DNA of 18,450 nt from a virus, in UHGV virus genome UHGV-1662509; one strand, given 5' to 3'. Position numbers: made by a program. This document shows positions 12,001-15,000 of this stretch, in pieces (positions within the stretch are counted from its first letter, which is position 1; each line of letters begins with the position of its first letter).

Positions 12001-15000
12001 GCCAGGTGTTTTAGCACCGCCACTTCCTCCGCTACCGCCAGCCTTATACATCGCATATGCACCTACCGCACCCAAACCAGCGCCAACAAGAGAGGCTCGC
12101 CCCTGCTGTTTCGTAAACGCAGCCTGTGCGTCCGATTTAGCTTTTGCCAGACTGCTGTCTGCCAGCGAGTTAAAACTCTGTAACGCATCCGCCTTTTGAC
12201 CAGAACCGAGAGCAGCAACATCCTGTAGCCCGGCAACATACTTATCTGCCTGCGATACCTGCCCCCGTGTGGTTGTGTCAATCTGCCCGGTTACCTGATC
12301 ACTCTGGTTCGCATTCATTACCGCGTTAAAGCGACCACTGGACGGGTCAACACCGGACTGAGCAAGATTACCCGCCAGCTCCTTCCGTGCTTCGCCAAAC
12401 TGTTTCTGATACCCCAGATTTGTGGTGCCAGCAATATTGTCGTACTGCTGCTCACTGTTCAGGTCATCGACCTTTTCCATGAAGTTATCTTCAGCCGGGC
12501 GGAGGATTTTTTGATAATCCTGCCACCCTTTCCAGGCCACTTCTTCCTGTGCTATTTGCGCTGCTGTTGGTTTTACTTTGGTATCACCACCGCCTTTTTT
12601 TCCGCCCATTATGGCCCCCTGGATAACAAAAAACCCTGCCGGGGCAGGGTCAGAATGTGAATTGCAATTGGTTTACACACGATAATGAATACAGTGGCAG
12701 TCAGACCGCTATCCTGAACACCATGAAGCCATCCTCATCATCCGGCATTCGCTCAAAGCCCAGACGTTTTCCCAGCCGGATAAATCCCCGTCTTGCCGTA
12801 TGGAATTCAGCCCAGCGTCCGCCAGCCAGACGGGTTAATGTCTTCACCTCCGGCAGATAACGCTCAACGCTGTTACTCCCCGTACACACGCCCAGCAACA
12901 CCAGAACATAAGGGATACCGTCGTCACTGAGCACAGCACGCAGCACCAGAAAACCATCCGGTGCCTCAAAGCAAAACGCCTGCTTTTTAAGGCAGGCGTC
13001 TTTAACTTCATTCATAAATTCAGGGTTGCGGGAATTTCTCACAACACGCTGCATATACCGGAGAATTTTGTCGTCCATTCTCTCACCAGAAACGGGTGCC
13101 ATATCGGCTGAACCTCAGCAACCAGTTGACGGGGACTTTCGTCCCCGTCGCGGTTTTCCTACTGCTTACACTGTAAGAACGCCGCAAACTCCGCTCCCCA
13201 CAAATTCAGCCGGAACTCACACAACGAGCCGTGTAACATCCAGATGGTGAAGATTACCGTCATACAAATTGTGACGGTGATGAGCGATTTTTGCGACATA
13301 GCGCTTGCCTCCTGAGTGGAGAGGCGCTAACCTTCTACTTGCTTAAGGTATGATGGTTAGGGCCTCGGGTTAAACAAAATGTTTGACTCGGGGCCTTTCC
13401 ACATCAGGCCTTCAGGTTCACCTTCCAGCCATCAGCCGAAAGGCACCCGTGCATAATCTACGATTTTTGCCCTGCACGGGCAACAAAAAACCCGCCATCA
13501 CAGCGGGTTATGACATGTTGTCGGGTATTACTCAGAATTTCAGGCCAATGCCTGCAAATAAACCATCAGTTTTCCAGTCGCCAGAGCCTGAGCTTTCATA
13601 AGTGACGTCCATAGTAACACTTTCATTGAAGTTAAATTGCGCGCCGACAGACCATGCAATAGACGTTTTTTTGGTGCTGTTACTTTCAGAAAAACTACCT
13701 ACACCACCATTAAGATTGTCGTTAACTTTCAAATCATAAGTTACTTTTGCAACCGCAACACCTGCCATTGAATACACACTGAGGTATTCATTAAACCGCC
13801 ACGAAGGACCGGATAGTAGACTCCAGTAATTAGCCCTGATATCAGTTCTCGCTGAAGCTGCCGGTTTTTTTACCTCTCGTGATGGATCGGAAGGCTTAAC
13901 ATCAATGAATGCCTGTGCATTAGTCATGGATCGAGCCCATGCAAAAGAGGTTATAACACCGATCTCATCCGTAATCTCATAACGATACTTAATGTTCATT
14001 CCCAAGGGACTTTTCTCTTTACCATCATGGCCCCGGACAAACGCATCGTCATATTCTCCAGGTGAATTGAAATAGTTTTCATTCACAAAATTGTTAAAGG
14101 TATCAAGGTTATGAAGACTTAAATCCTTAACAAAATTATTCAGCCCGGATAACTGAAGGTGAGCGAATCCAAGGGATACGGTACTATCACCAGATGCAGC
14201 ATGTGCCTGTGCAGTTAATCCACCTAAGCCCAGAGTTGCGCACACAAGAAATTTTGTGATACTTTTCATTTTAAGAATCTTCCTATATTAAAAACATTGT
14301 TCTCTCTGTCCTTTCCACATTTTTGATTATTTACCATCCTGCCTGGAAATAAAAAATAAAAATTTTTCTTAAAATGATTGATAAATTTTATTGTGCTAAT
14401 CATACATTGAAGTATTAATAACAAGAACTTTGTCTACATAAGACTTTCGAATATCCCATGTTGCACCACCTGAATAATGCTCACAGGAATATATTTTATT
14501 TCCTGTAGCGCCAGTGGATGTGGTATAAATCGGTCGGTCATAAGGAGTTCTTTTCCAGTTATAATACCCGACCAGTGCAGGCATAATTGCGCATGGATAT
14601 CCAAGGTCCTTTTCAAATTTGATATCAACAGGTATTAACTTCGCGTCAAGCAGCATCATTTCGCCATGGTAAATCATCTCACCCAACGGATTATACATGG
14701 CGATACCATACTCAGAAGGTTGAGTAACCATATTCGCAAAAGCATAAACAGTCGTAACACCAGGATTCGTTCCCCTGACAATTTGATGAAGCCTTAAGGC
14801 ATGATATCCATCAATCTGTTCATGCGTGTACATGACATCGGCCTTCTTCTCTGTTCTGATAAAGAAAAAACAACTTTTTCCTGACGGAATTGACGTTTTA
14901 AAAAAAGCCTTCTCAGTCGCCGGAATAGTTCCCTTATTGATAAGACACTGAGGCGTAAACCCCGGGCTTATCCACAAGCTGCCATCTGGTTTCGTAATGC

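Follow-up and report, generated by a model that had tools for sequence, protein, structure and literature searches.

The window, an 18,450-nt stretch of the virus genome UHGV-1662509, is from a Sepvirinae prophage (933W/phi24B-like, short-tailed) of the Oslovirus GER2 type, and is here 99.5% identical in nucleotide sequence to phage GER2. Its lom gene (13532-14269, minus strand) starts at an ATG and encodes 245 amino acids, 221 of them in the mature form, of an Ail/Lom-family protein predicted to form an eight-stranded outer-membrane beta-barrel; the preliminary description had given this open reading frame, and its length including the signal peptide, exactly. A ribosome-binding site read from the sequence, AGGAAG (14279-14284, minus strand), lies 9 nt upstream of the ATG. 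Residues 1-24 (14198-14269, minus strand), MKSITKFLVCATLGLGGLTAQAHA, read in translation as a canonical-looking signal peptide, with K2, K6, a hydrophobic core and an AHA/AS motif with cleavage before AS. The protein ends in ...GIGLKF and thus carries the terminal aromatic residue of a beta-signal; F245 is invariant in one of our alignments (A1) and more than 90% conserved in another (A3).

Upstream of the gene is an AT-rich intergenic region of 126 bp (14270-14395, minus strand; GC content 0.33-0.34), the presumed promoter region of the cassette. A consensus scan of the minus (lom) strand, this region included, identified no sigma-70 site. The upstream sequence is unrelated to its equivalents in 933W and Lyz12581Vzw (around 30% aligned identity over 14300-14399). 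An intrinsic terminator (13489-13509, minus strand; 9-bp stem and T-run) follows 23 nt past the stop codon, and the GC content of the cassette is 0.39-0.42, compared with 0.50-0.55 in its flanks. With its own terminator and upstream region and a deviating base composition, lom is a self-contained accessory cassette (‘moron’) of the prophage.

The window, GER2, Lyz12581Vzw, phi24B and 933W share one gene order: the tail needle, a gp55-like gene, a gp54-like gene, lom, and then genes for proteins of 133 and 218 amino acids. lom therefore directly follows the tail-needle and putative receptor-binding genes, the homologues of phi24B gp54 and gp55 being at 14396-15300, and its flanks are 90-100% identical in nucleotide sequence among the Sepvirinae phages compared. 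The GER2 counterpart is annotated as ‘attachment invasion locus protein precursor’, and the same protein is present in NCBI as WP_032179509.1 (‘Ail/Lom family outer membrane beta-barrel protein’, Escherichia coli); a cluster of 137 member sequences (P0001) is 99.6% identical to it. The gene is thus already known and correctly annotated, an ordinary Lom of 933W-like short-tailed Stx prophages.

Family membership and length

The protein matches the Pfam family Ail_Lom (PF06316, OMP_b-brl clan) at 3.9e-30 and 105.5 bits, against a cutoff of 23, with the match confined to residues 90-245 and profile positions 50-199. PF13505 scores 44 bits over residues 11-245, PHROG_108 (‘Lom outer membrane protein’) matches the full length at 1.2e-69, and lambda Lom (PDB 9wso_C) matches at 4.2e-24. 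Scores fall below the equivalog cutoffs for Rck/PagC (NCBIfam NF011777; 84.1 versus 258 bits) and OmpX (NF006917; 58.1 versus 176 bits); we rejected orthology to either and consider the protein a relative only. It belongs to the LomW clade, with full-length homology to clusters P0002-P0014 at 60-91% identity and 98-100% coverage; these proteins are 239-245 amino acids long, save P0014, at 275 amino acids, which probably has a mis-called start.

Other clusters at 50% identity, drawn from 1.84 billion proteins, provided 87 complete representatives for a survey of length. These have a median of 192 amino acids, a 90th percentile of 228 and a maximum of 250, and a single representative is as long as the window protein. 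Lambda Lom has 206 amino acids, and the reference profiles have 199 (Pfam and PHROG), 185 (Rck/PagC) and 171 (OmpX) positions. However, every complete Sepvirinae allele with a true start is 239-246 amino acids long (933W and phi24B, 244; Lyz12581Vzw, 245). The description of the protein as unusually long therefore stands for the family as a whole and fails within Sepvirinae: comparison with the lom alleles of related prophages showed the same length, and 245 amino acids is the clade norm, not the mark of an exceptional allele. Lom hits were present in 397 phage records, and in 195 of these at least 80% of the 245-residue query was matched.

Much of the difference lies in the interval between G34 and G90, which includes loop L1 and measures 55 residues here compared with a family median of 18. 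Across the family, total length varies between 150 and 250 amino acids and this interval between 0 and 57 residues; the interval is fixed at 54-55 residues in alleles down to 60% identity and is 53 in P0020 (45%). All Lom proteins inspected from short-tailed Stx phages (window/GER2, Lyz12581Vzw, phi24B, 933W and Stx2_4151) are of the long form, whereas in long-tailed Stx phages and lambda the match is limited to residues 90-245. A long L1 is also present in around 24 further clusters, from Salmonella, Morganella, Kosakonia and Serratia.

Predicted structure

An AF2 model built from 101 diverse sequences (pLDDT 91, pTM 0.81) has strands at residues 29-40, 89-98, 103-126, 138-158, 163-184, 193-213, 218-227 and 234-244, with periplasmic turns of four residues each at 99-102, 159-162 and 214-217. 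The modelled barrel has eight antiparallel strands, joined by short turns on the periplasmic side and by long loops outside. Foldseek gave target-normalised TM-scores of 0.81-0.83 for Ail (0.83 for 3qrc) and 0.78 for OmpX; a search of BFVD returned distant generic barrels only and no useful Lom model.

Loop L1 (residues 41-88; 14006-14149, minus strand) is the main source of extra length. AF2 predicts in it an alpha-helix of 25 residues (43-67; 14069-14143, minus strand) and an extra strand (residues 73-81), at a pLDDT of 84-94 across the loop; alignment A1 shows no counterpart of the extra segment in lambda Lom or OmpX. At 100 degrees, the helix as predicted has a hydrophobic moment not significantly above that of shuffled sequences (p ~0.2); the moment peaks at 120 degrees. 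Loop L2 is modelled as an extended beta3-beta4 hairpin (residues 116-146; 13832-13924, minus strand), formed by strands 103-126 and 138-158 and bearing a variable tip at residues 127-137 (SDPSREVKKPA; entropy 1.32). L3, with the beta5/beta6 extensions, spans residues 178-201 (13667-13738, minus strand). Relative to lambda Lom, L1 is longer by about 32-35 residues and L2 by 12, and L3 is shorter by 6; relative to Yersinia pestis Ail, the three loops are longer by 38, 16 and 11 residues, respectively.

The hydrophilic insert quoted in the preliminary description, FIDVKPSDPSREVKKPAASARTDIRANY, is present at residues 121-148. Its proposal that this insert and an N-terminal segment form extracellular loops agrees with the model, in which the excess is entirely extracellular and corresponds to L1 and L2. 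The insert is not a floppy hydrophilic loop: L2 is a beta-hairpin extension, and its descending strand, PAASARTDIRANYW, is more conserved than any other part of the protein. In the model, the extra length is a larger extracellular cap, composed of an L1 of about 48 residues with a predicted helix and strand, and a longer L2 hairpin.

Allelic variation and selection

The most constrained segment is residues 136-158, PAASARTDIRANYWSLLSGPSWR (13796-13864, minus strand), which comprises the descending L2 strand and the membrane part of beta4 (pN 0.023 and pS 0.43 across 5 alleles); entropy over residues 138-146 is 0.07. Alleles differ mostly in the signal peptide, where variability is highest (entropy 1.54), and in the L1 helix, the L2 tip and the L3 tip; the Stx2_4151 allele lacks five residues of the L2 tip. 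The dN/dS ratio is 0.12 in the barrel, 0.20 in the loops and 0.20 in the L1 helix, and is below 0.25 everywhere, with dS near 0.8-1.0. Purifying selection acts on lom, and from the ratios in barrel and loops we conclude that the gene is functional rather than decaying. Pseudogenisation was rejected because lom is intact and evolves under purifying selection. Regional Nei-Gojobori estimates, a weak test for positive selection with dS near 0.8-1.0 and clear recombination, identified no region with a dN/dS ratio of more than 0.5.

Lom proteins are only 65-81% identical where the adjacent virion proteins of the same phages are 91-100% identical, and divergence between the phages compared is confined to 13500-14400, a pattern consistent with selection on a surface protein. 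The window allele is a mosaic, its 3′ third being identical to that of Lyz12581Vzw. lom is the single hypervariable, mosaic cassette in an otherwise near-identical virion module.

Possible functions

We consider the best explanation, at a probability of roughly 60%, to be that the lom moron encodes an Ail/OmpX-type barrel with an enlarged cap that is likely to act as a surface factor. The protein would be exported by Sec, inserted by BAM as an eight-stranded outer-membrane barrel and displayed on the surface of the lysogen, with the cap as its presumptive ligand-binding and antigenic face. It would then most likely be a lysogenic-conversion factor that affects adherence or interaction with host defences. 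Specificity or antigenic variation may be carried by the variable L1 helix and L2 tip, and the invariant descending L2 strand may be a conserved functional or structural core. A role in adhesion or immune interaction appears most likely, as has been reported for LomW (65% identical), Ail, Rck and lambda Lom.

The LomW protein of 933W (244 amino acids) is a published, surface-accessible EHEC vaccine antigen, and anti-LomW sera lower the adherence of EHEC and EAEC O104:H4 to Caco-2 cells and colonisation of mice (PMC6692519, PMC5003871), although the function of LomW is termed uncharacterised in one of these reports (PMC6692519). Lower adherence could also be a steric effect of antibody bound to any exposed protein. 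For the window protein, antisera to LomW give indirect evidence of outer-membrane localisation and exposed loops. Lysogens of phi24B express lom, at a level that induction does not raise (PMC3342100). Two observations sit less easily with a surface factor: no region has a dN/dS ratio above 0.25, so there is no direct sign of positive selection, and the conserved location of lom behind receptor-binding genes, taken with the new results on lambda Lom, suggests instead a role related to the phage.

Such a role could be receptor masking or exclusion of kin phages, in which the L1/L2 cap would bind the phage's own receptor, BamA, so that fewer sister phages adsorb non-productively to cells that are infected or lysogenic, with the loop architecture of the clade mirroring its different receptor. 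The analogy is with lambda Lom and LamB; we regard this as a possible but somewhat unlikely account. PDB entry 9wso contains lambda Lom and maltoporin, the latter identical in sequence to that of the gpJ-LamB entry 8xcj; a literature search yielded no paper describing 9wso, and the nature of the complex is read from the chains present. Lambda Lom, when expressed, is reported to give a strong block of lambda-vir and none of T7 (bioRxiv 10.1101/2025.02.28.640651). The gene lies right after tail-tip or receptor-binding genes in lambda, 933W, phi24B, the window and two unrelated Salmonella prophages, and the long form accompanies the short-tailed Stx phages inspected. phi24B itself uses BamA, and gp54 and gp55 have been proposed as its receptor-binding proteins. 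However, phi24B lysogens are reported to be superinfected by the same phage at high frequency (PMC3430580), and the steady expression of phi24B lom on induction (PMC3342100) also weighs against masking. BamA and the putative receptor-binding proteins are 91-99% conserved, whereas Lom diverges to as low as 65%; variation in Lom therefore tracks neither partner. A long L1 is also present in a lambda-like siphophage context (P0040), and a PADLOC search of Lom and its neighbours returned no match. BamA is also the insertase that folds Lom itself. The more specific proposal, drawn from the same analogy, that the clade-specific cap, with its helix-bearing L1 and the long hairpin containing the invariant strand PAASARTDIRANYW, would be a BamA-binding device hiding BamA from sister phages seems to us unlikely; if true, it would follow that Lom proteins generally exclude phages in a receptor-matched manner, and that the receptor of a phage can be read from the loop architecture of its Lom.

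The extra loop length might instead lack a specific function, as a neutral expansion inherited by the clade in a generic barrel or a dispensable moron. The broad continuum of loop lengths across the family and the allele without five L2 tip residues are consistent with this, but purifying selection extends to the loops (dN/dS 0.20, L1 helix included, with dS near 1), the strongest conservation in the protein is found within the insert, L1 length is held constant among divergent alleles and AF2 predicts an ordered L1 at high confidence, which makes neutral expansion very unlikely. That a wrong start codon, gene fusion or frameshift has inflated the open reading frame, as the restriction of the Pfam match to residues 90-245 might suggest, can be dismissed almost with certainty: a canonical signal peptide sits at the start of the frame with a ribosome-binding site upstream, the N-terminal 89 residues are retained at full length in more than 12 clusters, PHROG_108 matches residues 1-245 and AF2 models the N-terminal region confidently. 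We rejected a mis-called start or gene fusion on the signal peptide, ribosome-binding site and conserved N terminus.

As a widespread prophage accessory gene with a correct annotation and a clade-typical length, lom is of little consequence as a discovery. It is of modest use in that an ordered, helix-containing L1 is predicted that is absent from the matched solved structures. The hypervariability of lom bears on EHEC vaccines based on LomW, since identity between alleles is only 65-81% and most differences fall in exposed loops. Receptor masking by Stx-phage Lom becomes directly testable through the lambda Lom-LamB structure and the conserved position of lom behind receptor-binding genes.

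Relation to known systems

The closest characterised counterparts are LomW/Lom of 933W (NP_049526.1) and phi24B (ADN68466.1), each of 244 amino acids, which share length class, loop architecture and synteny with the window protein and align to it over the full length at 65% identity. The window protein is a different allele: its signal peptide, its L1 helix and the tips of L2 and L3 have diverged, and the upstream region of its gene is unrelated.

Lambda Lom (206 amino acids; PDB 9wso chain C) has the same Pfam family and barrel, with 34.5% identity by tblastn over residues 90-245, and shares the C terminus SGSGDW(R/K)TDG...G(I/V)G(L/Y)KF. The lambda gene directly follows the tail-tip host-specificity gene, as lom of the window follows putative receptor-binding genes. 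Its L1 is shorter by about 32-35 residues, leaving no room for the helix, its L2 is shorter by 12 and its L3 longer by 6; the receptor of lambda is LamB, whereas that of short-tailed Stx phages is BamA. Y. pestis Ail (3QRA/3QRC) and E. coli OmpX (1QJ8/1QJ9) are likewise eight-stranded antiparallel barrels and have the motifs KYRYE, GP.(W/Y)R.N and G.QFN in common with the window protein but, unlike it, are chromosomal, and have 148-156 mature residues. The solved structures matched (Ail and OmpX) have no helix-containing L1, and that of lambda Lom in 9wso is too short.

Proteins with a long L1 from Salmonella prophages (P0028, 243 amino acids; P0035, 250; P0040, 228) and from Morganella, Kosakonia and Serratia symbiotica align to the window protein over the full length at 31-40% identity. 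Their L1 interval is 40-57 residues, with a similar G(L/V)K..V(N/K) start; L2 is mostly shorter and L3 often longer, and their hosts and phage backbones are different. At the two Salmonella loci inspected (P0028 and P0040), the lom-type gene again follows a Phage_Tail_Tip gene.

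Lom in 933W-type prophages

The lom gene (13532–14269, minus strand) has 245 codons and an ATG start, and re-reading of the sequence returned the 245-aa product with signal peptide exactly as the preliminary description had it. A ribosome-binding site, AGGAAG, lies 9 nt 5′ of the start; the translation opens with a canonical signal peptide (MKSITKFLVCATLGLGGLTAQAHA|AS) and closes with GIGLKF, and there is a terminator 23 nt past the stop codon. PHROG_108 (‘Lom outer membrane protein’) matches the whole length of the protein (1.2e-69), and Pfam Ail_Lom matches residues 90–245 only (E = 3.9e-30). 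The PDB matches are lambda Lom (9wso_C, 206 aa; 4.2e-24), then Y. pestis Ail and E. coli OmpX. Scores fell under the NCBIfam equivalog cut-offs for Rck/PagC and for OmpX; on this basis orthology to either was ruled out and Lom was classified as a family member only.

Over the 1.2 kb around lom, the window shares 99.5% identity with Escherichia phage GER2 (Sepvirinae, Oslovirus) and 99.7–99.8% with nine complete E. coli chromosomes. GER2 annotates the gene as ‘attachment invasion locus protein precursor’, RefSeq lists WP_032179509.1 (‘Ail/Lom family outer membrane beta-barrel protein’), and an annotated cluster of 137 sequences differs from the window protein by one residue. This is an ordinary, previously annotated Lom of 933W-type prophages.

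Gene order is common to the window, 933W, phi24B and Lyz12581Vzw. On the coding (minus) strand a 541-aa protein comes first, followed by the 424-aa tail needle or tip (Pfam Phage_Tail_Tip) and two ORFs of 93 and 208 aa; lom is next, and beyond it lie a hok-like gene, two genes for proteins of 133 and 218 aa, and one for a giant 2783-aa protein. The two small ORFs between tail needle and lom (14396–15300, minus strand) overlap by 4 nt (15019–15022); neither has a Pfam match, and PHROG labels the 93-aa ORF ‘outer membrane protein’ and the 208-aa ORF ‘membrane associated protein’. Their phi24B homologues, gp55 and gp54, were recently put forward as BamA-binding receptor-binding proteins. Directly 3′ of lom lies a hok/sok-type toxin–antitoxin module (13159–13448, minus strand): the 46-aa ORF at 13159–13299 matches Pfam HOK_GEF (4e-08) and is annotated as Hok/Gef or ‘MokW-like’ in related records, and Rfam sok (RF01794) aligns to 13288–13448 with 41.9 bits (E = 1.2e-07), under the gathering score of 59. 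Related records annotate the 2783-aa ORF (1547–9898, minus strand) as an LPD38/LPD5 domain-containing protein; presumably it is the large virion protein of Sepvirinae that is either internal or ejected. The GER2 GenBank record also carries a 12-bp ‘attR’ misc_feature (window ~12623–12634; 5324–5335 of locus L001) in the midst of the virion genes, with the 218-aa gene on one side and the 133-aa gene on the other, an odd position for a prophage end.

Length across the family

When 1.84 billion cluster representatives were searched exhaustively with phmmer, 239 matched. Lengths of the 87 complete representatives left after setting aside the close Sepvirinae group had a median of 192 aa, a 90th percentile of 228 aa and a maximum of 250 aa, and only one of these proteins was as long as the window Lom. 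Complete Sepvirinae alleles with a true start are all 239–246 aa (933W 244, phi24B 244, Lyz12581Vzw 245, PhiR5_2 243 and Stx2_4151 240). The protein had been described as unusually long, with the proviso that such length should not be common in the family; because 239–246 aa is the clade norm and 192 aa the family median, the description holds for the family at large but not within Sepvirinae. One homologue, P0014, is an exception at 275 aa: 31 additional N-terminal residues precede its signal peptide, most likely because the start codon was mis-called in that assembly. Of the 397 phage records that matched Lom at all, 195 covered 80% or more of the 245-aa query.

A long extracellular loop 1 (L1) also occurs in ~24 further clusters annotated Ail/Lom, from Salmonella, E. 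coli, Morganella, Kosakonia and Serratia symbiotica. Two of these proteins, P0028 (243 aa) and P0040 (228 aa), are encoded on Salmonella enterica contigs (L010, 4922–5653, and L012, 937–1623), each directly after a Phage_Tail_Tip gene. One locus is Sepvirinae-like and the other lambda-like (J, lom, stf); the latter adjoins a colicin D/pyocin S-type toxin and immunity pair.

Predicted structure of the loops

An AlphaFold model built with 101 diverse homologues (pLDDT 91, pTM 0.81) places beta1 at residues 29–40, beta2 at 89–98, beta3 at 103–126, beta4 at 138–158, beta5 at 163–184, beta6 at 193–213, beta7 at 218–227 and beta8 at 234–244, with an alpha-helix (43–67) and an extra strand (73–81) within L1. 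Amphipathicity of the predicted L1 helix had no statistical support. Relative to lambda Lom, L1 is longer by ~32–35 residues and L2 by 12, and L3 is shorter by 6; relative to Ail, L1, L2 and L3 are longer by 38, 16 and 11 (alignment with lambda Lom and OmpX, and HMMER alignments to Ail). Periplasmic turns in the model are four residues each, and the whole of the excess length is therefore predicted to lie on the extracellular side. The earlier assignment of the extra residues to extracellular loops is thus borne out by model and alignments; the ‘hydrophilic insert’, also extracellular, is modelled not as a floppy loop but as an elongated beta3–beta4 hairpin (L2). Its tip, SDPSREVKKPA, is variable, with five residues absent from one allele; nowhere is the protein more conserved than in the hairpin's descending strand, PAASARTDIRANYW (pN 0.023 versus pS 0.43).

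Divergence and mosaicism

The GC content of lom is 39–42%, compared with 50–55% in flanking virion genes. Between the window and 933W or Lyz12581Vzw, neighbouring proteins are 91–100% identical and Lom only 65–81%. DNA divergence is limited to 13500–14400, which covers lom and the intergenic region upstream, the rest of the virion module being 90–100% identical; that intergenic region has ~30% aligned identity with both phages and is essentially unrelated. A 52-aa ORF with a TTG start (14266–14424, minus strand) overlaps this AT-rich region, in which GER2 annotates a 45-aa hypothetical protein and RefSeq none; the ORF is probably spurious.

Recombination has made a mosaic of the window allele, whose 3′ third is identical to that of Lyz12581Vzw. 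Relative to Lyz12581Vzw, nucleotide identity is 100% over the last 45 codons, 97% over codons 116–160 and 72–78% over the 5′ half. Alleles differ mainly at the signal peptide, along the L1 helix and at the tips of L2 and L3; nevertheless, the barrel has a dN/dS of 0.12 and the loops one of 0.20, at dS values near 0.8–1.0. The alleles are old, recombining, functionally constrained variants of a surface protein, and positive selection is not claimed. Their divergence and mosaicism bear on the allele coverage of vaccines based on LomW, the 933W Lom.

Possible roles of Lom

A serious alternative to a role in host interaction, and the only reading with real upside, is that Lom might mask a phage receptor. 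Expressed lambda Lom specifically blocks lambda-vir (bioRxiv 10.1101/2025.02.28.640651), and PDB 9wso, for which a literature search found no describing paper, holds lambda Lom (206 aa) with the maltoporin LamB, identical in sequence to LamB in the gpJ–LamB entry 8xcj; their presence together implies a Lom–receptor complex. In lambda, Sepvirinae and two Salmonella prophages, lom follows receptor-binding genes. As BamA is the receptor of short-tailed Stx phages, and proteins proposed to bind it are encoded by the pair of ORFs that immediately precede lom, the clade-specific cap formed by L1 and L2 might target BamA. However, phi24B is reported to superinfect its own lysogens efficiently (PMC3430580), and its lom expression is not induced (PMC3342100). 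Moreover, Lom variation far exceeds that of BamA or the putative receptor-binding proteins, and a long L1 is also present in a lambda-like context.

Adhesion is among the known roles of the family members Ail, Rck, PagC and lambda Lom. Lysogens of phi24B express lom, and the level does not depend on induction (PMC3342100). LomW has been used as a vaccine antigen, and its antisera lowered adherence of EHEC and EAEC O104:H4 to Caco-2 cells, reduced mouse colonisation and supported complement killing, although the authors call the function of LomW itself uncharacterised (PMC5003871, PMC6692519). Taken together with the family roles, this literature best supports reading Lom as a surface-displayed lysogenic-conversion factor, with the enlarged cap as its probable interaction and antigenic face. 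In Foldseek comparisons, the modelled protein lies near Ail (TM normalised to target 0.81–0.83) and OmpX (0.78).
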